This document shows, piece after piece, positions 11,668-56,109 of a stretch of DNA of 59,114 nt. Source of the stretch: Anaerolineae bacterium (GTDB taxonomy: Bacteria > Chloroflexota > Anaerolineae > 4572-78 > JBHHXL01); assembly GCA_046757065.1 (NCBI GenBank), contig JBHHXL010000002.1, forward strand, positions 1 to 59,114, read 5' to 3'. The first letter of the stretch is position 1; each line of letters begins with the position of its first letter. The position numbers were made by a program, and so were the translations under genes. Under the pieces are notes generated by a model that was not told where the DNA came from, searched no databases, and was given only the letters and a program-made list of their open reading frames with translations.

Positions 11668-12366
11668 TTAAGGTGTTCCGTCCTCAAAATCTTCATCGTC
11701 GAGATTGGTGAGTACCAGTTCGCCCGCCTCAACGATATGATCAACAAGCGTTTTCTGCGCCAACTCAATGTCGCCTGCGCGCAGGGCTTCGATAATCGGG
11801 TAATGGGTGTCAACGACGTCGTGCGGGTTATCGTACAGTTGGTCCTTGATGGAAAAAAATAGGCGTAGTTGGGCAGACATGCGTAGCCAGGCGCGGATCA
11901 ACCGGCTGTTGTGGGAGCTATCGACGATACGCTCGTGAAAAGCATGATCCCATTCGACCAACTGGGATATATCGCGCTCTTCTGCTGCCTGGCGCATCTT
12001 ATTTACCAACGCCTCAAGTTCGTCGATTTCGGCCGGTGTCATATGGGGTAAAGCAAGTTTGACGGCCAGGCTTTCCAGGGCAGTGCGTAGGGTGTAAATC
12101 TCCTCGATGTCCTGGCGCTTCAGTTTGATAACAAACGAACCCTTACGCGGAATGCTGACGACAAAGCCCTCTTCCTCCAGCAACCGGATGGCTTCACGAA
12201 CAGGTGCCCTGCTGGTGCCCATTTGCTCAGCAATGGCGGTTTCTACCAAACGAGCGCCGGGTTTGAGCGCCCCGGCCTCGATCGCCTGCCGAATGTTGTT
12301 AACCACTTGTTCCCGCAGCGATTTGTCATCAACCTGTCTGAAAATTTGGCTTGATTCAAAGGTCAT
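11668..12366 (-). CDS. GntR-family transcriptional regulator (FadR/FCD subfamily)
   Basis: 232 aa. Winged HTH AIAEQMGTSRAPVREAIRLLEEEGFVVSIPRKGSFV followed by an all-helical FCD-like C-domain. Confidence 0.9.
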   Translation of the reverse strand: MTFESSQIFRQVDDKSLREQVVNNIRQAIEAGALKPGARLVETAIAEQMGTSRAPVREAIRLLEEEGFVVSIPRKGSFVIKLKRQDIEEIYTLRTALESLAVKLALPHMTPAEIDELEALVNKMRQAAEERDISQLVEWDHAFHERIVDSSHNSRLIRAWLRMSAQLRLFFSIKDQLYDNPHDVVDTHYPIIEALRAGDIELAQKTLVDHIVEAGELVLTNLDDEDFEDGTP

Positions 12367-12386: not shown

Positions 12387-13133
12387 CTAGGCTGCGGACC
12401 AGCCTCCGTCCACATAAAAAACGCCGCCGGTAATATAGCTTGAGGCTGAAGAGGCGAGTAGAAGCGCAGCCCCTACAACCTCGTCAGGCTTACCCAAACG
12501 ACGCATCGGGGTGCGCTGGATGATGCTCTCTAATAGCCAGGGGGTATCTTCTAAACCGGCTGTCATATCCGTCTCGATGTAGCCCGGAGCGATGGCATTT
12601 ACCTGGACGTTGTATTCAGCCCACTCCTGGGCCAGAACGCGAGTGACCTGGAGCAGCCCTCCTTTGGCGGCGCAATACGCAACGAATTTTGGTAAGCCCG
12701 TGCTGGCTCCGATTGAGACAATGTTGATAACCTTGCCCTGGCGTTGCTCAACCATCACCCGCCCAACGGCCTGGCAACACAAAAAAGTGCCCGTTAGATT
12801 GACCGCCAAAATTCGGTTCCAATCCTTCTCTTTGAGTTTCAGCGCACGGGTGTACACCGGGCTAATCCCGGCATTGTTGATGAGCACATCGATCCGGCCG
12901 AACGCCTGCAAAGTTGCCCCGGCTAATGCGGAGACGTCAGATGATTGACTCACATCCGTCGGCACACCCAGACCACGCCGGCCGCGGGTTTTGACTTCCT
13001 CAACGACGCGTTCGACATCTTGCCGGGTGCGGCTCGCGATGACCACATCTGCGCCCGCCTCGGCTAAACCAAGCGCGAGCGACCGGCCTATGCCGCGGCT
13101 ACCCCCCGTCACAATGGCGACCTTGCCGTCCAA
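12387..13133 (-). CDS. Short-chain dehydrogenase/reductase (FabG-like)
   Basis: 248 aa with TGGSRGIG, NNAG and the catalytic YCAAK. Confidence 0.9.
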   Translation of the reverse strand: MDGKVAIVTGGSRGIGRSLALGLAEAGADVVIASRTRQDVERVVEEVKTRGRRGLGVPTDVSQSSDVSALAGATLQAFGRIDVLINNAGISPVYTRALKLKEKDWNRILAVNLTGTFLCCQAVGRVMVEQRQGKVINIVSIGASTGLPKFVAYCAAKGGLLQVTRVLAQEWAEYNVQVNAIAPGYIETDMTAGLEDTPWLLESIIQRTPMRRLGKPDEVVGAALLLASSASSYITGGVFYVDGGWSAA

Positions 13134-13190
13134 GGAAAAATCGATTGGAGCACCCCTTTAGCTTCTACAATGCTTGTCTCGAAGAATATG

Positions 13191-13248
13191 CGTCGACTGT
13201 CGACAGTCGACGTTATACAATTCTAACATGCCCGGAATCTTTTGTCAA
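13191..13248 (-). promoter_or_regulatory. Promoter P1(-) with operator O1
   Basis: On the minus strand: TTGACA (13248-13243), 17-nt spacer, TAGAAT (13225-13220), 7 nt, then the perfect 22-bp palindrome CGTCGACTGTCGACAGTCGACG (13191-13212). It lies 58 nt upstream of the SDR start. Confidence 0.7.
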
Positions 13249-13293
13249 CTCATCTATCGCTAAATTTCGAACCCAAGGCATGCTAATTGCTAA

Positions 13294-13350
13294 TTGACAG
13301 CCACAAATTATTATGCTAGAATAAAGATCGTCGACTGTCGACAGTCGACG
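13294..13350 (+). promoter_or_regulatory. Promoter P2(+) with operator O2
   Basis: TTGACA 13294-13299, 17-nt spacer, TAGAAT 13317-13322, 6 nt, then the perfect 22-bp palindrome 13329-13350. Confidence 0.6.
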
Positions 13351-13386
13351 TTGTGCAATTCTAGCACACCAAAAATCTTTTGTCAA
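13329..13386 (-). promoter_or_regulatory. Promoter P3(-) sharing operator O2 (face-to-face with P2)
   Basis: On the minus strand: TTGACA (13386-13381), 17-nt spacer, TAGAAT (13363-13358), 7 nt, then the same palindrome 13329-13350. Confidence 0.55.
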
Positions 13387-13403
13387 CTCGCCTCGTAAAA
13401 CGG

Positions 13404-13585
13404 GGTCCACGAACGATCTGTTGGGAATTCACCGACTTGCCCTGAGGCGGAGCGTTGAAACGCCCGGCTGATACAGAAAAACCTGTTGAAACAGGTTAAT
13501 ACAGCCTTTTAGTGTGTTTTTAACACACTTTTCGTATCAGCCGATGATTTCAATCATCGGGTTAAAAACAGATCGTTCGTGGACC
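13404..13585. other. 182-nt multi-helix palindromic element (candidate leader/ncRNA or MITE)
   Basis: A perfect 19-bp closing inverted repeat, GGTCCACGAACGATCTGTT / AACAGATCGTTCGTGGACC. An inner 10-bp helix (13465-13474 with 13534-13543) encloses two hairpins. A further hairpin at 13541-13560 competes for 3 nt. GC content is lower than the surroundings. Confidence 0.6.
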
Positions 13586-13602
13586 GACCGAACGTATGCT
13601 AA

Positions 13603-13659
13603 TTGACAACCACGAATTATTGTGCTAGAATAAAAATCGTCGACTGTCGACAGTCGACA
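13603..13659 (+). promoter_or_regulatory. Promoter P4(+) with operator O3
   Basis: TTGACA 13603-13608, 17-nt spacer, TAGAAT 13626-13631, 6 nt, then the palindrome at 13638-13659 (21 of 22 positions match). It lies 31 nt upstream of the CoA-ligase ATG. Confidence 0.7.
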
Positions 13660-13689
13660 AAACCCCGAGGATGGTTCATTTCACGCCAG

Positions 13690-15102
13690 ATGATGCCCAA
13701 GATCGTTCCCTCACCTATGTACTCTACCCGAAAGAGCGCTTCGCGGGAAACGTTGAAGCAAACCCAGTTGGCACGCTTGAAGCGCCAGTTGGATTATGTC
13801 TACCAGTGCAGCCCGTTTTACCGGATGCGGTTTGATGCGGCCGGGGTTTCCCCTGGCGATGTGCGCAGCCTGGCGGACATTCGCCGTCTGCCCCTGCTAA
13901 CAAAGGAGGATTTGCTGGCGGATCAGGAAGGGCAGCCTCCTTACGGGGCCCGGTTGTGTGTTTCGGAAGACAAGATTGCCATGCTGATTCTCACCAGCGG
14001 CACCTCCGGCGTCGGGCAGGAAGCGTATGCCATGACGCGGCTGGACGTCGAGTTTGGCGGCAGCGCCTGGACCAACTGGTACTATCGCTGCGGCCTGCGG
14101 AAGGGCGACCAGATTCTGCTCACCTGGCCGTTGGGCACCAATTCCGGGCCGCAAGGCGCTTTCCTGGGGGCCTACAAGCTCGGCGCCAATACTCTTCCCA
14201 TTGCCCCCTATGATAGCCGGTCCAAACTCCAAACTTATCTGCTGAAGTTCAACCCGGCCGGCATTGTGGTTACACCCGCCTATTTGTCCCACCTGACTGT
14301 TTTGTGCGAAGAATTGGGCATCGATCCAAAGCAACAATTCCGGAATCTTAAGGCGATTATGATTGCAACCGAGGCGTACCCAACCTCCTGGGCGCAACGA
14401 ATGGAGTCAATCTGGGGAACGCGGCTTTATGAACTCTATGGTAACACACAACAGGGAGGGCTGGCCGCCGGCTGTTGCGAAGCCGGCGTACTGACCGAAG
14501 ATGGCGGACGCGGCTGTTTGCACCTTGACGAGTGGAGCACCTTGTTTGAGGTGATCGACCCTGAAACTCACGAACCGGTGGCTCCCGGGGAAGTCGGCGA
14601 GCTGGTCCTGACCAACCTCTTCCGGGAAGGCTCGCCGCTGGTCCGTTTCCGGACGAAGGACCGGGTTCGATTCCTGCCCCACACCTCTTGCACTTGCGGC
14701 CGACCGACAGATTGCATAGAGGCCGGCACCGTCGCGCGCTACGATGATATGATGAAGATCCGCGCCCAAAATGTTTGGCCGGAAGCGGTCGATTCGCTTA
14801 TTCTCGCCCATCCCGAAATCGAAGAATACCAGGGCCGGGTGTATGTGGACGACCGCGGCCGGGAACAGGTGGAAGTGAAAATCGAATTCAAGGTTGGGTT
14901 GTTGACTGAAGAGGCCAAACGCCGATTGTTGAATAATCTTACGGCTGAACTTCGCCGTGGGGTTGGCATATCTATGGATCTTTCCGAAGCCCCGGCAGGT
15001 TCGCTGGAGCGTTTTGTTTTCAAAACCCGGCGTTGGACCGATGAACGCAAAAAGGGCCTGGAACGGGTGCTCCACACGGCCGCTGGTGCACGCAAGGAGT
15101 GA
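13690..15102 (+). CDS. Phenylacetate-CoA ligase / coenzyme F390 synthetase-family (PaaK-like) acyl-CoA ligase
   Basis: The ORF-track start at 13603 is a TTG inside the -35 hexamer. Family similarity begins near MMPK (13690): QLARLKRQLDYVYQCSPFYR, LTSGTSG. Confidence 0.85.
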   Translation: MMPKIVPSPMYSTRKSASRETLKQTQLARLKRQLDYVYQCSPFYRMRFDAAGVSPGDVRSLADIRRLPLLTKEDLLADQEGQPPYGARLCVSEDKIAMLILTSGTSGVGQEAYAMTRLDVEFGGSAWTNWYYRCGLRKGDQILLTWPLGTNSGPQGAFLGAYKLGANTLPIAPYDSRSKLQTYLLKFNPAGIVVTPAYLSHLTVLCEELGIDPKQQFRNLKAIMIATEAYPTSWAQRMESIWGTRLYELYGNTQQGGLAAGCCEAGVLTEDGGRGCLHLDEWSTLFEVIDPETHEPVAPGEVGELVLTNLFREGSPLVRFRTKDRVRFLPHTSCTCGRPTDCIEAGTVARYDDMMKIRAQNVWPEAVDSLILAHPEIEEYQGRVYVDDRGREQVEVKIEFKVGLLTEEAKRRLLNNLTAELRRGVGISMDLSEAPAGSLERFVFKTRRWTDERKKGLERVLHTAAGARKE

Positions 15103-20505: not shown

Positions 20506-21408
20506 ATGTTTCAACTTAGCTCACAGGAGATTAGAAAGGAAACAACTTGCGTGAGCCAAAACGCTAAATCGAAACTGCGCAACGTTGGAAAGTACTACCA
20601 GTCCGGAGACTGGAGCGATTATTGGCGCACGGCCATCAGCTACGTGGCCCCCCAAAAGGTGCTCATTCGGGGCTACCCCATCGAGGAGATTTGCGAGCAC
20701 CTGACCTACGCCGAGATGTGCTGGCTGACCATCCGGGGTGAGTTGCCGACGCAGGCGCAGGCGCGGGTGATGGACGCCCTGCTGTGCTGCATGCCGGATC
20801 ACCAGTTTGTGGCCTCCCACACTCCGGCGGCGCGCTTCACCGCCTCCGCCTTCCCCGAATCGCCCATTCCCGGCATCGCCAGCGCGGTGCTCACGATGGG
20901 CTCCAACACGGTCTCGCCCCAAGAGTCGGCCAAGATCATCCTGGCCGCCTGCGAATTGATGGAGTCGGAGGGCCTGAGCAAGGAAGACGCCGCGCGGGAG
21001 ATGATCAAGCGTTATCTCGCCGCCGGGCGGCGCATCCCCGGCCTGGGCCACCCGACTCACAAGCACGATGACATGCGCGCCTCCGCGCTGCGGCGGGTTA
21101 CCGAGGCGCAGGGCTTGTGGGGCGAGAAGTGCCAGGTCTACGAGTGTATCCACCGGGCATTCATCGAAACAACGGGCAAATCCCTGCCGATCAACATTGA
21201 CGGGATGATGGCGGCGGTGATGACCGAACTCGGCTTTGACCCGCTGGAAATGGCCGGCATCGGCGCGCTGTCTGTTCTGCCCGGCGTCATCGCCCACGTC
21301 GTCGAAGAGATTCGCGAGGGTGTGCCTCTGCGCATCATCCCCGATGAGCTGGGTTCGCAGTACACCGGCCAACCTGAGCGGCATTTGCCGCATACCCAGG
21401 AGACCTAG
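20506..21408 (+). CDS. Short citrate-synthase-fold protein (citryl-CoA-lyase-like)
   Basis: 300 aa with GLGHPTHKHDDMRA (compare GFGHRVYK..DPR), NIDG and PGVIAHVVEE. The HGGA histidine segment is replaced by MGSNT. The start is uncertain. Confidence 0.7.
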   Translation: MFQLSSQEIRKETTCVSQNAKSKLRNVGKYYQSGDWSDYWRTAISYVAPQKVLIRGYPIEEICEHLTYAEMCWLTIRGELPTQAQARVMDALLCCMPDHQFVASHTPAARFTASAFPESPIPGIASAVLTMGSNTVSPQESAKIILAACELMESEGLSKEDAAREMIKRYLAAGRRIPGLGHPTHKHDDMRASALRRVTEAQGLWGEKCQVYECIHRAFIETTGKSLPINIDGMMAAVMTELGFDPLEMAGIGALSVLPGVIAHVVEEIREGVPLRIIPDELGSQYTGQPERHLPHTQET

Positions 21409-21855
21409 ATGTTCACCGTTCGCGGCTTCAACGACGTCGACGTCGGCCACACCTTCAGCCATAGCGTCACCGTGACCGAGGCCCATCTGGTCCTGGCCGC
21501 CGGGCTGTTTGGCGACTTTCACCCGCTGCACACCAACGAGGAGTATGCCCGGCAAAGTCGCTTCGGCCACCGCATCACCCACGGCCCGTTGAACGTTGGC
21601 ATTATGGCCAGCGTGCTCGGCAATTACTTCGCCGGGGCTGCCGGGCCTTACCTGGAGCAGGTCGTTCGTTTCAAGGGGCCTGTAGCGCCCGGTGACACGG
21701 TGACCACGACCTGGAAGATCGTTGAAAAAATCCCGAAAGCGAAACTCGAAGGCGGTATCATCCGCCTGGAAGTGCAGATGCACAATCAGGATAAGGTATT
21801 GATTCTCGAGGGCGAGGGCAAGATTATCTTGTATAACGATGCCCGGCCAAGGTAG
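21409..21855 (+). CDS. MaoC-like (R)-specific enoyl-CoA hydratase/dehydratase
   Basis: 148 aa, hot-dog motif GDFHPLHTNEEYA..FGHRITHG. Confidence 0.85.
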   Translation: MFTVRGFNDVDVGHTFSHSVTVTEAHLVLAAGLFGDFHPLHTNEEYARQSRFGHRITHGPLNVGIMASVLGNYFAGAAGPYLEQVVRFKGPVAPGDTVTTTWKIVEKIPKAKLEGGIIRLEVQMHNQDKVLILEGEGKIILYNDARPR

Positions 21856-21861
21856 GTTCTC

Positions 21862-22386
21862 ATGGAGTTCTGGGAAGTTTTGCAAAAACGCCGTAGCGTC
21901 CGGGAATTTGACCCGGAGCGGGATGTTCCGTTGGAGTCGATCAATCGGCTGTTGGAAGCGGCTATCCTGGCCCCGACTGCCGGGGATCGCCAGCCCTGGC
22001 ACTTTGTCATCGTTCGCAAACCCAGCGTCAAGGAAGCCATCGCCCGCACAGCCCTGCGTCAGGATTTTATCGCCACTGCCCCCGTCGTCATCGTCGTCTG
22101 TGGTGAGCCTGAACGGTCCGGGGCGCGCCGGGGCCAGGAAATGGCCGAGCTCCATACGGTCCAGGATGTTTCCGCAGCGGTGGAGAATATCCTGCTTGCG
22201 ACCACCGACCTGGGGCTTGCCTCATGTTGGGTCAGCGCCCTGCGAGAGGATGAGGTGCGCCAGGCGCTCGACCTGCCACCGGCTTTCCGGCCGCTGGCAA
22301 TTGTTCCCATTGGGTTTGCTGCCAGACGACCGGGGGCGCGCCCCCCACGCCGGCCGGTAGACGCCGTAACGACCTTTATCGACTAG
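21862..22386 (+). CDS. Nitroreductase-family flavoprotein
   Basis: 174 aa with RRSVREF and APTAGDRQPWHFVIV. Confidence 0.85.
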   Translation: MEFWEVLQKRRSVREFDPERDVPLESINRLLEAAILAPTAGDRQPWHFVIVRKPSVKEAIARTALRQDFIATAPVVIVVCGEPERSGARRGQEMAELHTVQDVSAAVENILLATTDLGLASCWVSALREDEVRQALDLPPAFRPLAIVPIGFAARRPGARPPRRPVDAVTTFID

Positions 22387-31457: not shown

Positions 31458-31519
31458 TTGACAGCCCGGTTATCCCATGTTACTATACCGGTGCATACAG
31501 TCGACTGTCGACAATCGAC
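31458..31519 (+). promoter_or_regulatory. Internal promoter P5(+) with operator O4
   Basis: TTGACA 31458-31463, 17-nt spacer, TACTAT 31481-31486, then GTCGACTGTCGACAATCGAC at 31500-31519, matching the 20-bp palindrome core at 19 of 20 positions. AAGGAGG RBS, then the ATG at 31548. Confidence 0.65.
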
Positions 31520-31547
31520 CGAAATCAAGGAGGGTATTCAGGTTATT

Positions 31548-39317: not shown

Positions 39318-40787
39318 GTGGTTGGCAACGGTCCACTAAAGATTCTCGATGAAGGGCAAATTCACTCGATACACCAGACGGCGCTGGGCTTGCTGGAGAA
39401 GATCGGCGTCGTGGTCAAAGAGCCGCGCGCGTGGCGCTATTTTCGGGAGGCCGGCGCTGCGATTGACGAGGAGAACATGCGGGTGCGCATCCCGCCCGAC
39501 ATCGTCGAGGAGGCCATCAGGCTGGCGCCCAGTCGATTCACCGTACACGCCCGCGAACCGGATAATACCGTTGAAGTGGATTACCGACGGCTGCACATCG
39601 AGCCAATGATCGGGCGTCTCAATTTTCTCGATCCAGAGACGGGCGAGCGCCGCCGCACCAATATCACCGATGTGGGCAACCTGGTGCGCGTGGCCGATGC
39701 GATGGAGAATTACCATCTGCTGCACAGCGGGGCGATTATGCCCAGCATCGAGGGCGTTCCCTTGCACGCCGCGCACGCGCACGGTTACCTGGCCAGCGCG
39801 CGCAACACCGGAAAGGTCATCAAAGGCTCGGCGCGTGGCCGGGCAACGGCTGAGGATTGCATCCGTATGGCCGCCGTTGTGGCCGGCGGCGAAGATGCGC
39901 TCCGGCAGCGCCCGAACGTCTTCACCACCGTCAACCCGGTTGCGCCGCTGCAACACGATAAGGGCTTGACCGAAGGCTTGATCGAATATGCCTCTTACGG
40001 CCTGCCCATTGACGTCACCAGCGAACCGCAGGCGGGGGCGACCGCGCCCATCACCCTGGCCGGGTTGCTGGCCCAGCAGACCGCCGACGTGCTCAGCGGG
40101 ATCACGCTGGCCCAATTGGTCAACCCCGGCACGCCGGTCTGGTACGGAACCTGCGGCACGATTATGGATATGAAGCTGGGCGCAATTGCGCTGGGCGCGG
40201 TCGAGGCCGGGTTGATCAATGCGGCCTCGGCGCAGATGGCCGCCTTTTATCAGATTCCGTGCCGGGGCACCGGCGCAGCGACGGAGTCCAAGCTGCTCGA
40301 CATTCAGGCCGGCTACGAGAAGGCCATCACGCTCTTTATGGCCGCCCTGGGCGGCATCAATTGCCTCTTCTATCCGGGCGTGCTCGAACACGCGCTGACG
40401 ATCAGCCTGGAGGCGCTGGTGATCGACAATGAAATCTGCGGTATGGCCCTGCGCGCCCTACGCGGCATCGAGGTCAACGCCGACACGCTGGCCGTGCCGG
40501 TGATCGAAGCGGTAGGGCCGGGCGGCAATTTCCTGGGCCAGCGCCACACGATGAACTTCTTGCACCAGGAACAGTTCATGCCCAACTTTAGCAACCGGCA
40601 GACCCGCGAGGATTGGCTGGCAAAGGCAGGGGGCAAATCGGGCTGGGAGCGCGCCAAAGACGAAGTGCGGCGCATCCTGGCCGAGCACGAGCCGCCGCCG
40701 TTGGATGCCGGCGTCGAGGCCGAACTGGAGCGCATCGTGCGCGAAGTCGAGGCGCGCGGCCCGGAGCCAAAGAGGGTGTACGTATGA
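39318..40787 (+). CDS. MttB-superfamily methyltransferase, pyrrolysine-free (quaternary-amine:corrinoid methyltransferase-like)
   Basis: 489 aa, GTG start, no in-frame TAG. ILDEGQIHSIH..LLEKIGV, VAPLQHDKG, EPQAGATAPITLAG and GPGGNFLGQRHT are family-typical. Confidence 0.9.
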   Translation: MVGNGPLKILDEGQIHSIHQTALGLLEKIGVVVKEPRAWRYFREAGAAIDEENMRVRIPPDIVEEAIRLAPSRFTVHAREPDNTVEVDYRRLHIEPMIGRLNFLDPETGERRRTNITDVGNLVRVADAMENYHLLHSGAIMPSIEGVPLHAAHAHGYLASARNTGKVIKGSARGRATAEDCIRMAAVVAGGEDALRQRPNVFTTVNPVAPLQHDKGLTEGLIEYASYGLPIDVTSEPQAGATAPITLAGLLAQQTADVLSGITLAQLVNPGTPVWYGTCGTIMDMKLGAIALGAVEAGLINAASAQMAAFYQIPCRGTGAATESKLLDIQAGYEKAITLFMAALGGINCLFYPGVLEHALTISLEALVIDNEICGMALRALRGIEVNADTLAVPVIEAVGPGGNFLGQRHTMNFLHQEQFMPNFSNRQTREDWLAKAGGKSGWERAKDEVRRILAEHEPPPLDAGVEAELERIVREVEARGPEPKRVYV

Positions 40788-41904: not shown

Positions 41905-42576
41905 ATGTCTGAACATGACGATATTATCGAACGAATGCAGGAGAGTATTTACGAAGCGGAAGAGGAAGAAGCCGCCGCCGCCGCCGCCGCTGCGTTGGAA
42001 GCGGGTATGGACCCCCTCGAAGCGCTTGAGCGGGGCTTCGCCGAGCCGATCCGTGAACAGGGGGAGGCGTTCAACCGGATGGAGATCTTCCTGCCCCAAC
42101 TCGTTCTGAGCGCCGGGGCTATGAAGGCCGGCCTCAAAGTGCTGGAGCCGGCCCTCAAAGCCGGCGACGACTACGAGGCGACCCGCAAAGGGACGGTCGT
42201 GATCGGCACCGTCGAAGGTGACATTCACGACATCGGCAAGACGGTCGTCATCGCTATGCTGCGCTCCGCCGGCTACGAAGTCCACGACCTGGGGGCCGAT
42301 GTGCCGATGCCCAATTTCCTGCAGGTGGCCGAACAGGTCAAGGCCGACATCATCGCCATGTCGGCCCTGCTTTCCACGACGATGCTGCGCCAGCGCGACC
42401 TGATCGAGTTGATGGAGCTGAAGGGCGTTCGCGACCGGTACTACGTCATTGTCGGCGGTGCGCCGGTGAACGAAGCCTGGGCCCGGGAGATCGGGGCCGA
42501 CGCTTTTGCGCTCGATGCTTTTGAGGCGGTGGAAGCGCTGAACGCGCGCCAGCGATTGGAGGGTTCTCATGCTTAA
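41905..42576 (+). CDS. Corrinoid (cobalamin-binding) protein, MtbC/MttC-like
   Basis: 223 aa, AGGAGA RBS. A helical cap domain followed by a Rossmann domain with the DxHxxG motif (EGDIHDIGK), SALLSTT and VGGAP. Confidence 0.9.
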   Translation: MSEHDDIIERMQESIYEAEEEEAAAAAAAALEAGMDPLEALERGFAEPIREQGEAFNRMEIFLPQLVLSAGAMKAGLKVLEPALKAGDDYEATRKGTVVIGTVEGDIHDIGKTVVIAMLRSAGYEVHDLGADVPMPNFLQVAEQVKADIIAMSALLSTTMLRQRDLIELMELKGVRDRYYVIVGGAPVNEAWAREIGADAFALDAFEAVEALNARQRLEGSHA

Positions 42577-43933
42577 TTACCTGGAGGCTATCAAGCGGGC
42601 CGAGATTGGGCCTATGTCAACGTCTGATGATTTCGCCATGCAGCTCATTGCCAGGAAGGTGCCGGAGCTGCAAAAGAAGTACGATATTCGTTACGATCCC
42701 AAGGTGCGCGTCAATACCGACGATGACCTGGCCGACCGCGTCTGGCAGGCCGGGCGCGAGTTGCTGCTGCACACGGGGCTGTTTAGCCTCAACAGCCGCC
42801 GCCGGATCGTGTTCGACGAGCGAGAGGTCGATGAGACGCTGGCGGCGGCGACCGCCGAGTTTGCCGCCGGCGAGGGCAAGGACGCGGCCCACGTCTACCG
42901 GCGCGACGTCGAAGACCCGCGCCCGCCGGTCATCTTTGGCGGGCCGTTCAACGCCGACGTCCACGAGAGCATGTTCGTCAAGCTCAATGAGGCCTTCGCC
43001 AGCGAGCCGCTGGTGGACCTGCTTCTGCTGCCGGGATACCTCAAGGAACTGGACGGGATCACCATCCGCCCCAATTCGGGGCTGTCGACGCGCGCCGCGA
43101 TGCTTTACGGCAGATGGTCGCGCGAGGCCATCGAGCGGGCCGGCCGGCCCGGGCTGCCGATTGTCGGGCACGCGGTGATGGCCCTCAACGAGATCGCCTG
43201 CACCAACGACGCCTGGGGCCTGCGCCGGACCGACCCGCGCGCCTACGCCATCATCTCCGAGCTGCAAGTGGACGACGTGACGCTGACCCGGCTGGCTTAC
43301 TACCATTCCATTGGCAGCCCGGTCTATATTTCGGCCACGCCGCTTATCGGCGGCTTCGGGGGCGGCCCGGACGGCACGGCCATCATCGGCGTGGCGGCGC
43401 ATATCGGCTCGGTCATGCTCGGCAGCCATGTTATGCACCTTGGGCCGCAACACATCCAACTCAGGCAACAGACGAATGCTATGTCGCTCTGGATGGGTAG
43501 CGTCGTCAAGCAAGCCGTGGCGCGCAACAGCAAGATGATCAACACTACCAGCGTGACGACGTCGGGGCGTCCGGGCTCGATGCAATATATTTACGAGTTC
43601 TCGGCCCTGGCGCTCTCGGTCGTGACCAGCGGTAGCAACCTGACCGGCCCCCGCCCGGCGGAGCCCCTCGGCTGGAACAACGTCAGCCCGCTGATGTGCC
43701 GGCTCTTCGCCGAAGTCGGTCGGGCCGCTACGAAACTTAGCCGCCAGGACGCGAATCGCATCGCCGACGCCCTGTTGGACAAATACAAGGACAAAATCCA
43801 GTTGAAGGACGCGCCCAAAGGTCTGCCGTTCGAGCAGATGTACGACGTAAATACGCTTCAACCCAACGCCGAGCACCGGGCGCTGTACGAGCAGGGACGG
43901 TCGGAGCTTAAGGAATTAGGGGTGCCGTTATAG
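42569..43933 (+). CDS. MtmB-family (monomethylamine methyltransferase-like) protein, pyrrolysine-free
   Basis: 454 aa, uninterrupted. The N-terminus (IKRAEIG..DDF..ELQKKYDIRYD...LADRVWQAGRELLLHTG), AGRPG and the C-terminus (FEQMYDVNTLQPN..YEQGRSELKELGV) are collinear with Methanosarcina MtmB as I recall it. Overlaps the corrinoid gene by 8 nt. Confidence 0.75.
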   Translation: MLNYLEAIKRAEIGPMSTSDDFAMQLIARKVPELQKKYDIRYDPKVRVNTDDDLADRVWQAGRELLLHTGLFSLNSRRRIVFDEREVDETLAAATAEFAAGEGKDAAHVYRRDVEDPRPPVIFGGPFNADVHESMFVKLNEAFASEPLVDLLLLPGYLKELDGITIRPNSGLSTRAAMLYGRWSREAIERAGRPGLPIVGHAVMALNEIACTNDAWGLRRTDPRAYAIISELQVDDVTLTRLAYYHSIGSPVYISATPLIGGFGGGPDGTAIIGVAAHIGSVMLGSHVMHLGPQHIQLRQQTNAMSLWMGSVVKQAVARNSKMINTTSVTTSGRPGSMQYIYEFSALALSVVTSGSNLTGPRPAEPLGWNNVSPLMCRLFAEVGRAATKLSRQDANRIADALLDKYKDKIQLKDAPKGLPFEQMYDVNTLQPNAEHRALYEQGRSELKELGVPL

Positions 43934-54393: not shown

Positions 54394-56109
54394 TCAATCC
54401 GCGCCTGGTTTCCAGCCGTAGATCGCCACGCCCTCCTTTTCATCCCGGTAAAGCAGGCGCAGGTGCTGTTCAACGACCGGGGCGGGGGGCGCGTCCGGCA
54501 GCCGGTGGTGAACGACCACGTAATCTGCACCCTTTTCGCGTAGCAAGGTCAGGCTATCTGCTGAGGGGAAGGCCAGCATCGATTCCCGCAACCGGCTGTG
54601 ATACGGCGGAAAGAAGCCGGAATAGCCGTTGAGCATCGCCGCTTGAAAGTAGCGGCCGGCCAGCATCCAGCGGGTCGTCTGCTCGAAGTCGGCCACCCGC
54701 CCGCTCCGGGCAAAGGGCACGAGGACGACCGCCAGCGGCGAGGGTTGCTCCTTGAGCCAGGTCTGCCAGGCGGCGTCCGGCGGCGGGGGGACTTCCAGCA
54801 GGGGCAGAGGCAGGGCCAGCGTCTCGAAAATGGCAAATGAGGCGACCAAAGCTAGAGCCAGATTATTGGCGTTTTTCCGAAGAGGAGTCCGGAATTCATT
54901 CCGGACTCCTTGAAAAGCTACGGGCATTTTTGAACAGATGATCCCCAGATGGTGCAGCCCGAACCCGGCCAGCAGCGCCAGATGCAACTGCGCAAAGGCG
55001 GCAAAACGGAACGGGCTGCGCAGTTGGGCGAAGCCGGGAACGTAATGCCTGAGTAGCTGGTAGGGGGCAAATCCGGCCAGATTGAGGCGAAGTCCCAGCG
55101 AGAGCGCAAAGGCCAGGACTGCCGCCAGAGCCAGATAGGCCCTGAGCCGCTTCTGTCGCCGCCCGGCGAGGCCGGCCAGGGCCAGCGCGGTCAGGCCGAG
55201 GCCGGGGAACAGACGCTGGCCCTGGCCGCTTTGCCGCCCCAGGAAGCGGCCATACAGCAGGTTGTCATCCAGGAAAAATGTGTAATTCTCCGGCCGGGCC
55301 GATTGGTTGGTGATGGTCTTTTCGCTGCGGGCAAACCCGTAGGTTTGCAGACGCCGGCGTTGGGCCAACAGAAAAGGGCCGCTCAAGGCCAGGGCCAGCA
55401 GGCCGATGATCGCCAGCCGGCCGGCTGTGCTCCAGGTCAAGTGTCGCCGGCGCAGGTGAAACAGGAGGGCCAGGGGCAGGAACAGGAGGCTGAACAGGCC
55501 GTAGTAGGCGCAGGTGAAGAAGGTGACGGGGCTGCCCAGAGCCAGGCCGAGGCCGTTTCGCCAGGAGGCGCTCCCGGCGCGGGCCAGGAAGCGATGCAGG
55601 AACAGCAGCGACCACAGCGGCCCAAAGAGGGCCATCAGTTGCAAAACGCCCCGCTCCTGGGCCACAAAAGGCAGCGCCTGGGTCAGGAGACCGGCCAGAA
55701 GGGAGGGCCAGGACGGTAAGCCCCAGCTTCTGAGGAGCCAATAGGCGAACCAGCCGTTCAGGGTCAGAAAGAGGATGACCAGGGCATTGTAGGCCAGGGC
55801 CGGCGATCCGGAGCCCAGCCAGACCGGGGCGGCCAGCAGAGCGCTCAGCGGTTGGGTTTCGGAGAAGGCAAATGTGCCGCTCGCCGGGGCGAAGATGGGC
55901 GCGTCCCAATAGCCGGGATAGCCTTGCAGCAACTGGTCGATGTTCCATTGCAGCGTCCACAGGTTGAAGAGGGGGACGGTGCCGGACCGTTCGCTGCCGA
56001 GCGGGATGTGGTCGAGCGGGCGCAAGATCAGCGGGTAGCTTAAGACCAGGGACCCCAGGCTAAAAACCAGGAAGATGAGGATGGGCTGGCGCGGGCGCGT
56101 GTCGGTCAT
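54394..56109 (-). CDS. Large polytopic membrane protein (GT-C-like glycosyltransferase candidate)
   Basis: 571 aa with more than 10 hydrophobic helices followed by a soluble C-terminal domain. Function not established. Confidence 0.6.
   Translation of the reverse strand: MTDTRPRQPILIFLVFSLGSLVLSYPLILRPLDHIPLGSERSGTVPLFNLWTLQWNIDQLLQGYPGYWDAPIFAPASGTFAFSETQPLSALLAAPVWLGSGSPALAYNALVILFLTLNGWFAYWLLRSWGLPSWPSLLAGLLTQALPFVAQERGVLQLMALFGPLWSLLFLHRFLARAGSASWRNGLGLALGSPVTFFTCAYYGLFSLLFLPLALLFHLRRRHLTWSTAGRLAIIGLLALALSGPFLLAQRRRLQTYGFARSEKTITNQSARPENYTFFLDDNLLYGRFLGRQSGQGQRLFPGLGLTALALAGLAGRRQKRLRAYLALAAVLAFALSLGLRLNLAGFAPYQLLRHYVPGFAQLRSPFRFAAFAQLHLALLAGFGLHHLGIICSKMPVAFQGVRNEFRTPLRKNANNLALALVASFAIFETLALPLPLLEVPPPPDAAWQTWLKEQPSPLAVVLVPFARSGRVADFEQTTRWMLAGRYFQAAMLNGYSGFFPPYHSRLRESMLAFPSADSLTLLREKGADYVVVHHRLPDAPPAPVVEQHLRLLYRDEKEGVAIYGWKPGAD

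Follow-up and report, generated by a model that had tools for sequence, protein, structure and literature searches.

The DNA analyzed here, a 59,114-nt stretch of contig JBHHXL010000002.1 from an Anaerolineae bacterium (hereafter the window, meaning the whole stretch), contains a control region between two divergent catabolic operons in which three copies of a 22-bp palindrome, CGTCGACTGTCGACAGTCGACG, lie directly downstream of four near-consensus promoters. Judging from its distribution across genomes, the palindrome most likely serves as the site at which a GntR/FCD repressor, itself a product of one of these operons, binds DNA. We consider it likely, with some reservation, that a control unit built on this GntR/FCD operator was duplicated in tandem through its operators, that a miniature inverted-repeat transposable element (MITE) entered the region afterward, and that the extra promoters, which were kept intact, are probably active. 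The features discussed are collected in Table 1, and loci of other genomes are referred to by numbers preceded by L.

All three copies of the palindrome reported in the first-pass annotation of this DNA were recovered (operators O1, O2, and O3, with 0, 0, and 1 mismatches, respectively), and no copy was expected by chance in 100 shuffles. A promoter scan against the consensus, in which TTGACA-N17-TAGAAT scores 11 of 12, detected 12 promoter-like sites compared to 0.9 expected, among them four 11/12 promoters (P1 to P4) that all possess an extended -10 TG. The gap between the -10 box and the operator is 6 nt for P2 and P4 and 7 nt for P1 and P3, in agreement with the 6–7 nt claimed earlier. P2 and P3 stand face to face with O2 between them; their -10 boxes are separated by 35 nt, and their predicted starts are approximately 22 nt apart. 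A fourth site (O4), which had been overlooked, was identified between an ABC ATPase gene and the genes for a permease and a binding protein (ATG 31548). O1 to O4 begin 6–12 nt downstream of -10 boxes.

The 8-bp core of the operator, TGTCGACA, occurs four times in the 59-kb window, every time close to a promoter, and a relaxed scan allowing up to 6 mismatches added no further site. The possibility raised in the first-pass annotation that the motif is a repetitive extragenic palindromic (REP)-like sequence is therefore unsupported in the window. The core reads T-GT-CG-AC-A and is thus a promoter-proximal palindrome of the NyGT-Nx-ACNy type with N2 spacing. This spacing had been called typical of FadR operators, which needs correction: GT-N3-AC is the usual form in the FadR subfamily, whereas the PrpR, UxuR, and GntR groups are among those with N2 (PMC4494728). 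The operators are spaced by 138 nt (O1–O2, 13.1 helical turns) and 309 nt (O2–O3, 29.4 turns) versus 104 nt (9.9 turns) in relatives; the phasing is suggestive of DNA looping for the ancestral unit only, and no conclusion is drawn from it.

Table 1. Coordinates of the operators, promoters, insert, and principal genes of the control region, and of the separate O4 site, in the window
Feature	Position	Strand	Description
Operator O1	13191..13212		Perfect 22-bp palindrome with the 20-bp clade consensus GTCGAC-TGTCGACA-GTCGAC; 7 nt downstream of the P1 -10 box
Operator O2	13329..13350		Perfect 22-bp palindrome; common to face-to-face P2 and P3; junction of both duplicated units
Operator O3	13638..13659		21/22 match; differs solely at its final base, which falls beyond the 20-bp consensus
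Operator O4	31499..31520		AGTCGACTGTCGACAATCGACC; 3 mismatches to the 22-mer, 1 to the 20-bp core
P1	13248-13220	-	TTGACA-N17-TAGAAT, TG; predicted proximal promoter of minus operon; orthologous position seen in relatives
P2	13294-13322	+	TTGACA-N17-TAGAAT, TG; paralogue of P4, faces P3; predicted start ~13329-13330
P3	13386-13358	-	TTGACA-N17-TAGAAT, TG; paralogue of P1; predicted distal tandem promoter for minus operon
P4	13603-13631	+	TTGACA-N17-TAGAAT, TG; predicted proximal promoter of plus operon
Fifth promoter	31458..31486	+	TTGACA-N17-TACTAT with TG, upstream of O4
7-nt tandem duplication	13282..13295	+	GCTAATT-GCTAATT, directly upstream of and overlapping the P2 -35 box; single copy in P4/unit 2
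MITE-like insert	13404..13585		182 nt, perfect 19/19 terminal inverted repeats, no open reading frame
GntR/FCD regulator	11668..12366	-	232 aa, FadR subfamily, proposed repressor; N-terminal GntR winged HTH PF00392 (8e-18) and C-terminal FCD PF07729 (1.7e-30), both above gathering score
SDR gene	12387..13145	-	First gene of minus operon; likely non-canonical ATC start 13145-13143 behind AAAGGGG
PaaK-like CoA ligase	13690..15102	+	First gene of plus operon; start ATG 13690, 13693, or 13717

The first-pass annotation had assigned the palindrome to the adjacent GntR/FCD regulator, and the comparative evidence points the same way, as the site travels with orthologues and distant homologues of this protein. 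The four residues of its FCD metal tetrad (D140, H144, H188, and H210) are invariant in 19 orthologues, and the annotated genes of the region included no second transcription factor. A scan for the exact 20-mer, with 185,579 species each represented by a single genome, yielded 33 loci. Approximately 29 of these were embedded in heptamer arrays, (GTCGACW)n or (GTCCACA)n, of unrelated metagenome-assembled genomes (MAGs), with several per MAG; they are unconnected to the regulator and were set aside as operator sites after inspection of their flanks. According to phmmer against the open reading frames (ORFs) of each locus, the loci with the four isolated 20-mers, and no others, carry a regulator homologue: L006 (65% identity) and L030 (54%) are syntenic Chloroflexota loci, L024 (37%) is also from Chloroflexota, and L028 (30%) belongs to Alicyclobacillaceae.

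The core was also counted in 160 loci encoding regulator homologues, including loci of Alphaproteobacteria, Thermomicrobiales, and Kineococcus, with the upstream window defined as -250 to +10 of the regulator gene. TGTCGACA was present 43 times in 40 kb of upstream windows versus 16 times in the remaining 1.24 Mb, an enrichment of approximately 83-fold. The events behind this figure are not independent, as the peptide patterns used for retrieval included the recognition helix and the loci are phylogenetically related. For the same reason of retrieval, a cross-tabulation of recognition helix against motif (0/22 versus 37/137) was uninformative and was not relied on. A symmetrised frequency matrix demonstrated that conservation spans exactly the 20 bp of GTCGAC-TGTCGACA-GTCGAC and none beyond, and at least one outer hexamer was within one mismatch of GTCGAC in 37 of the 65 distinct sites (chance approximately 0.5% per side). 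The motif is confined to the syntenic control region in orthologous loci; in distant relatives, it lies 2–220 nt upstream of the regulator gene, often as the 8-bp core with one hexamer only. At the level of sequence comparison, this co-occurrence of motif and regulator gene across genomes constitutes a phylogenetic footprint.

Two pairs of repeats were detected within the control region: positions 13178-13251 (O1 and P1) share 81% identity with 13316-13389 (O2 and P3), and positions 13288-13349 (P2 and O2) share 94% identity with 13597-13658 (P4 and O3). The layout is composed of two units, O1<-P1/P2->O2 and O2<-P3/P4->O3, which have O2 in common and align with each other after removal of an insert. 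The spacer of unit 2 is 217 nt long, compared to 45 nt in unit 1, because a 182-nt inverted-repeat element was inserted in it. An independent Logan contig (L194, 99.9% identical and spanning window positions 13480-10670) contains O1-P1-P2-O2-P3 and the left half of the insert, and thus the duplication is not a one-off misassembly; the locus is present in the Logan run SRR29324597. A look-up of the CoA-ligase protein, sought as a second assembly of the right half, returned no record.

In Chloroflexota relatives (L035, which equals L030; L199/L200; L201/L202; and L203), the same divergent operons surround one compact unit with two operators 104–114 nt apart, between which back-to-back TTGACA-N17 promoters fire outward, each through its own operator (operator<-P(-)/P(+)->operator). 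L205 has a like layout in which the spacer measures 338 nt; the first bases of this contig already belong to an operator (L205:1-13). These unduplicated loci support the compact unit as the ancestral layout and the window as its duplicated form, which had been the interpretation of the first-pass annotation; the same comparison favors its assignment of P1 and P4 as the operon promoters and of P2 and P3 as a pair converging on a single operator. Two units fused at a common operator are what unequal recombination would be expected to yield if the right operator of one copy recombined with the left one of its sister; with operators that are both identical and palindromic, such an event is plausible.

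It was also observed that short-read contigs of relatives often stop in or near the control region (L205, L194, the contig end of L006/L034, and L114-L116); L194 breaks off in the middle of the palindrome formed by the MITE, and the contigs of the close orthologues L195-L198 stop inside the SDR gene, so that no upstream sequence was gained from them. Repeated operator and promoter cassettes probably break assemblies, and multi-operator layouts may therefore be under-sampled.

The duplicated copies were compared to find out which positions had changed between them. In the spacers and discriminators, 12 of 47 positions differ (26%), compared to 1 of 68 in the -35 boxes, -10 boxes, and operators (Fisher p = 7.6e-5), and the lone changed position among the 68 is the base outside the 20-bp operator consensus. 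When the promoter hexamers are taken alone, 0 of 24 positions changed versus 12 of 47 outside them (p = 0.004). This pattern suggests that constraint has acted on each of the four promoters and three operators ever since they were duplicated. As the boxes and operators remained intact while neighbouring bases diverged by approximately 26%, the extra promoters P2 and P3 are probably active.

The insert in the P3–P4 spacer had been overlooked in the first-pass annotation. Its calculated folding energies are -90 and -88 kcal/mol on the two strands (z ~ -9.4 on both), and it holds one terminator-like hairpin per strand, at 13511-13529 (+) and 13497-13480 (-). An Rfam search of the region gave nothing above threshold, merely sub-threshold chance matches to snoRNA and miRNA models, and blastn of the insert against plasmids gave no match. 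A gapped two-arm pattern of the insert had no match in the species genomes because the right arm differs in relatives; a scan with the single 19-nt arm then revealed the family, with nine loci, eight of which are in Chloroflexota/Anaerolineae and five of these in contigs of a single MAG. Both this family and the relatives of the locus assign the window to Chloroflexota/Anaerolineae. Five elements (L207, L210, L211, L212, and L214) are 182–183 nt long and have the common termini GGTCCACGAACGATCTGTTGGGA...TTGTTCGTGGACC. Their interiors are unrelated to that of the window copy, being G/C-rich and of the CCCCCATCCCCCAGCCCC type in the MAGs and AT-richer in the window. Direct repeats of 8–9 bp flank three of them (L210, L211, and L212), namely, GACGAACGG, ACCGCGCA, and AGGCGTTG. 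Like bacterial MITEs, the element thus has perfect 19-bp terminal inverted repeats, small and uniform size, no coding capacity, hairpin potential, multiple copies with the same termini, and flanking repeats in several copies, features that by sequence identify the insert as a member of a dispersed Chloroflexota MITE family; it differs in its unlike interior and in being the one copy in the 59-kb window. The insert also bears on the earlier proposal that P2 gives the CoA-ligase operon a second transcript with a leader of about 360 nt: such a transcript, with its leader of approximately 361 nt, would need to cross the 182-nt element with its strong fold and terminator-like hairpin.

In the proposed mechanism, the repressor would sit at approximately +1 to +22 of each near-consensus sigma-70 promoter, a position in which it should keep polymerase from forming an open complex or from escaping the promoter. 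Its release would be brought about by a metabolite, probably a carboxylate, that binds at the FCD metal site; the two divergent catabolic operons, the regulator gene, and, through O4, the ABC-uptake operon 18 kb away would then be turned on. Since the regulator gene lies inside the minus operon, it would be autoregulated via P1/O1 and P3/O2. Unequal recombination between the identical palindromic operators would have produced the tandem arrangement O1<-P1/P2->O2<-P3/P4->O3, and the MITE would have landed in the P3–P4 spacer in a later step. P3 would then serve as a second, distal promoter of the minus operon that is doubly gated, as its transcripts must also pass O1, and transcription from P2 would either continue across the MITE as far as the ligase operon or stop at the hairpin near 13511-13535. 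Because the predicted starts of P2 and P3 are so close, polymerase footprints would overlap, and the two promoters would be mutually exclusive or competing when derepressed. We regard it as unlikely, though worth stating, that the pair is a selected device rather than a relic, with one repressor dimer gating two mutually exclusive convergent promoters. In such a device, any one DNA copy would send polymerase one way or the other upon induction, or else the ratio or timing of the two operons and the repressor would be governed by the pair. P2 might also give rise to a short RNA that terminates in the MITE and has a 5' end complementary to every operon transcript.

Several observations weigh against the overall explanation. 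In addition to the manner in which the enrichment loci were retrieved, approximately three-quarters of the homologues with the same SRAPVR helix have no exact TGTCGACA upstream. The right third of the control region (13481-13659, containing the right arm of the MITE, P4, and O3) is supported by the window assembly alone, and the flanks of the insert match at 4 of 8 positions in the window, with no clear target-site duplication. A three-operator relative or a convergent pair was not found among the relatives' loci compared, and there is consequently no comparative support for a function of the duplicated layout. The selection argument draws on just 13 substitutions, to whose pattern patchy gene conversion or AT-richness of the spacers could contribute. 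The lack of a comparable relative and the small number of substitutions are also what would be seen if the duplication were real but neutral, with P2 and P3 as functionless by-products, maybe silenced by occlusion and by the MITE, and with boxes kept intact by chance, youth, or gene conversion. The footprints of P2 and P3, which must overlap at this distance between their -10 boxes, and the MITE structure with a terminator-like hairpin between P2 and its presumed target fit this neutral course as well. It is opposed by the absence of any change in the promoter hexamers relative to the unconstrained positions and by the retention of the extended -10 TG and the 17-nt spacer in all four promoters, and we hold it to be possible but doubtful.

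The alternatives that deny the operator itself fared worse. The palindrome might act mainly as RNA, as a 5'-terminal stabilising hairpin, terminator, or attenuator, since the 22-mer folds into a 9-bp stem (-13.7 kcal/mol, calculated), its position right after the -10 box would place it at the 5' end of all transcripts, and a terminator scan marks the minus-strand readings of O1 to O3 because the AT-rich -10 region comes after them; these sites are located, however, at predicted 5' ends, not 3' ends. In distant relatives, the distance of the motif from the gene varies, and the frequent reduced form, the core and one hexamer, would not fold into the same hairpin; the sequence itself is conserved, with no compensatory changes; and a characterised relative known to bind at its own promoter has this core in its predicted DNA operator (PMC9765439). 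The 5' hairpin noted in the first-pass annotation is real as a calculation, but any palindromic operator placed at +1 yields one automatically, and an RNA role is not separable from the DNA role. A mainly RNA-based explanation appears improbable, although the site might serve in RNA and as an operator alike. It is more improbable still that the site is the operator of a different, unlinked transcription factor. The many homologues that share the recognition helix and lack the exact core would agree with this idea, but the motif accompanies homologues of the regulator in differing gene contexts and phyla (L024, L028, Alphaproteobacteria, Kineococcus, and Thermomicrobiales), the annotated region holds no second regulator gene, and the core equals the PrpR/PmiR motif (PMC9765439). 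The least credible alternative, which we consider very remote, is that the motif is REP-like, a simple heptamer repeat of the (GTCGACW)n kind, or an assembly artefact with no regulatory link. Most exact 20-mers elsewhere do sit in heptamer arrays, several per MAG, but the motif in the window and its orthologues is isolated, consists of exactly three hexamers within 6–12 nt of a -10 box, and occurs four times in the 59 kb of the window, and an independent assembly shows two of the copies. The GntR/FCD operator remains the preferred assignment.

Heptamer arrays of the forms (GTCGACW)n, (GTCCACA)n, and (GTCAACn)n were recorded in their own right. They are short, intergenic, often at gene ends, and present several times per genome in unrelated MAGs of Gemmatimonadota, Acidobacteriota, Bacteroidota, Thermodesulfobacteriota, and others (L004, L007, L009, L018, L021, and L022, among others), and they are distinct from the operator.

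The minus operon encodes, in addition to the SDR and GntR/FCD proteins, a DHDPS-family protein, hydantoinase/oxoprolinase subunits B and A, an octopine-DH-like protein, an OTCase-like protein, and an aldehyde:ferredoxin oxidoreductase. The hydantoinase/oxoprolinase B subunit matches caprolactamase subunit beta, below the cutoff. The SDR gene probably starts at ATC 13145-13143: this codon is 6 nt after AAAGGGGT with an in-frame TAA just upstream, and the orthologue in L006 begins GTG-TCT-GAT-TTT-TCC (MSDFS), which the window sequence ATC-GAT-TTT-TCC matches. The mechanical ORF call was TTG 13133. The plus operon encodes the PaaK-like CoA ligase, a three-subunit Mo-hydroxylase that is closest to 4-hydroxybenzoyl-CoA reductase (below the cutoff), a protein of the HpaB/4-hydroxybutyryl-CoA-dehydratase family, MaoC, nitroreductase, DeoC, Zn-ADH, ferredoxin, a second aldehyde:ferredoxin oxidoreductase, and others. 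No clear Shine-Dalgarno sequence precedes the in-frame ATG codons of the CoA ligase, and its orthologue in L030 is also without one; a GAGG-ATG at 13667-13673 is out of frame with the ligase.

At the orthologous locus L204:1889-3755, the place opposite the SDR-side operon is taken not by the CoA-ligase operon but by a gene of the NicX family (2,5-dihydroxypyridine dioxygenase-like), another GntR/FCD gene, and one resembling MtmB; this gene set hints that the pathway deals with N-heterocyclic compounds. In the segment 39318-43933 of the window itself, methyltransferase homologues of the MttB family (39318-40787) and the MtmB family (42569-43933), both uninterrupted ORFs, flank an ornithine-cyclodeaminase-like gene. 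Two long ORFs are without a Pfam match, 20521-22155 (-) with 544 aa and 54394-56109 (-) with 571 aa; the former is antisense to citrate-synthase-like, MaoC, and nitroreductase genes of the plus strand and is probably not a gene. The segment 45352-54280, toward the right end of the window, contains defence and housekeeping genes, encodes HsdM (type I restriction-modification), a YgjP-like metallopeptidase, a 1223-aa GlnE/GlnD-type adenylyl/uridylyl-transferase fusion, and the AbiEii toxin, and is unrelated to the control region.

This analysis provides a concrete predicted operator for a clade of FCD regulators in uncultured Chloroflexota and a predicted local regulon consisting of two divergent operons and an ABC importer. 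The genes concerned, which include the PaaK-like ligase, the 4-hydroxybenzoyl-CoA-reductase-like Mo enzyme, the caprolactamase-like ATP-dependent hydrolase, and the aldehyde:ferredoxin oxidoreductases, point to an unstudied anaerobic pathway. The region may also be a natural illustration of regulatory evolution: recombination at palindromic operators can double an entire bidirectional control region and leave convergent promoters under one common operator, and a MITE then remodels the region. If the P2/P3 pair were a selected device after all, it would be a naturally evolved operator-mediated duplication that created new regulatory logic. For metagenome assembly, the frequent breaks of relatives' contigs at these repeats are a caution that such layouts may be under-reported.

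Among solved structures, the best match of the regulator in the PDB is 7xp0/7xp1 (E = 3e-25, 92.6 bits over approximately 200 residues). A literature search for the code 7XP0 found nothing; the structure holds the QQEGD...H segment that is numbered 139-143 in the PmiR paper, and it is therefore PmiR/PrpR/PA0797 of Pseudomonas aeruginosa (PMC9728974), a FadR-subfamily GntR/FCD repressor of the 2-methylcitrate cycle. PmiR/PrpR binds its own upstream region in electrophoretic mobility shift assays, and its predicted operator, ATTGTCGACAAT, is a palindrome with the identical TGTCGACA core and the same 2-nt GT..AC spacing (PMC9765439; PMC4494728); autoregulation, which is predicted for the window regulator, would be a further likeness. 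Its footprint covers two adjacent sites, both of which are needed for binding, and its effector, 2-methylisocitrate, binds at the Zn site formed by D143, H147, H192, and H214 (PMC9728974). This tetrad corresponds to D140, H144, H188, and H210 in the window regulator, with D140 and H144 aligned to D143 and H147 in the QQEGD..H segment. In contrast to the AT flanks of the PmiR/PrpR site, those of the window operator are GTCGAC hexamers that form a 20-bp triple-hexamer palindrome. As far as sequence can tell, the window system works like PrpR/PmiR yet is not in its orthologous group, because the regulator is a distant homologue, no NCBIfam equivalog reaches its cutoff for it, and the gene context is different, with no prpBCD nearby.

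The layout is likewise familiar in part. Divergons with two intergenic sites are a recognised arrangement (Suvorova, Korostelev and Gelfand, 2015, PMC4494728), and those of the FadR and HutC subfamilies have the regulator gene on one side of the divergent pair and a palindromic NyGT-Nx-ACNy operator for each promoter. This organization matches the ancestral units of L035, L199, L201, and L203. The window differs in that the unit occurs as a tandem pair whose convergent promoters have a single operator in common and whose second spacer contains a MITE. The Escherichia coli regulator NanR, also an FCD-type member of the FadR subfamily, has an operator of three short hexamer-type repeats (TGGTATAW; via PMC4494728), but those repeats are direct and asymmetric, whereas the window hexamers are each palindromic, follow a 7-bp period, and make the whole site a perfect palindrome. 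A published description of a duplicated divergon with convergent promoters under one shared operator and a MITE was not found.

Face-to-face promoter pairs with transcriptional interference include pR/pL of phage 186 and pIN/pOUT of IS10. P2 and P3 resemble them as convergent promoters that are close enough for occlusion or collision and whose transcripts would have complementary 5' ends. They differ in that their starts are predicted to be much closer, at the distance given above, in that they are near-consensus paralogues of operon promoters with one predicted repressor site over both, and in that the pair arose by duplication. The regulator–operator pair is of a well-known kind, the FadR/FCD divergon with a PrpR-like core, and its tandemly duplicated control region, with a convergent pair under a shared operator and a MITE, is an unusual variant of an ordinary bacterial switch.

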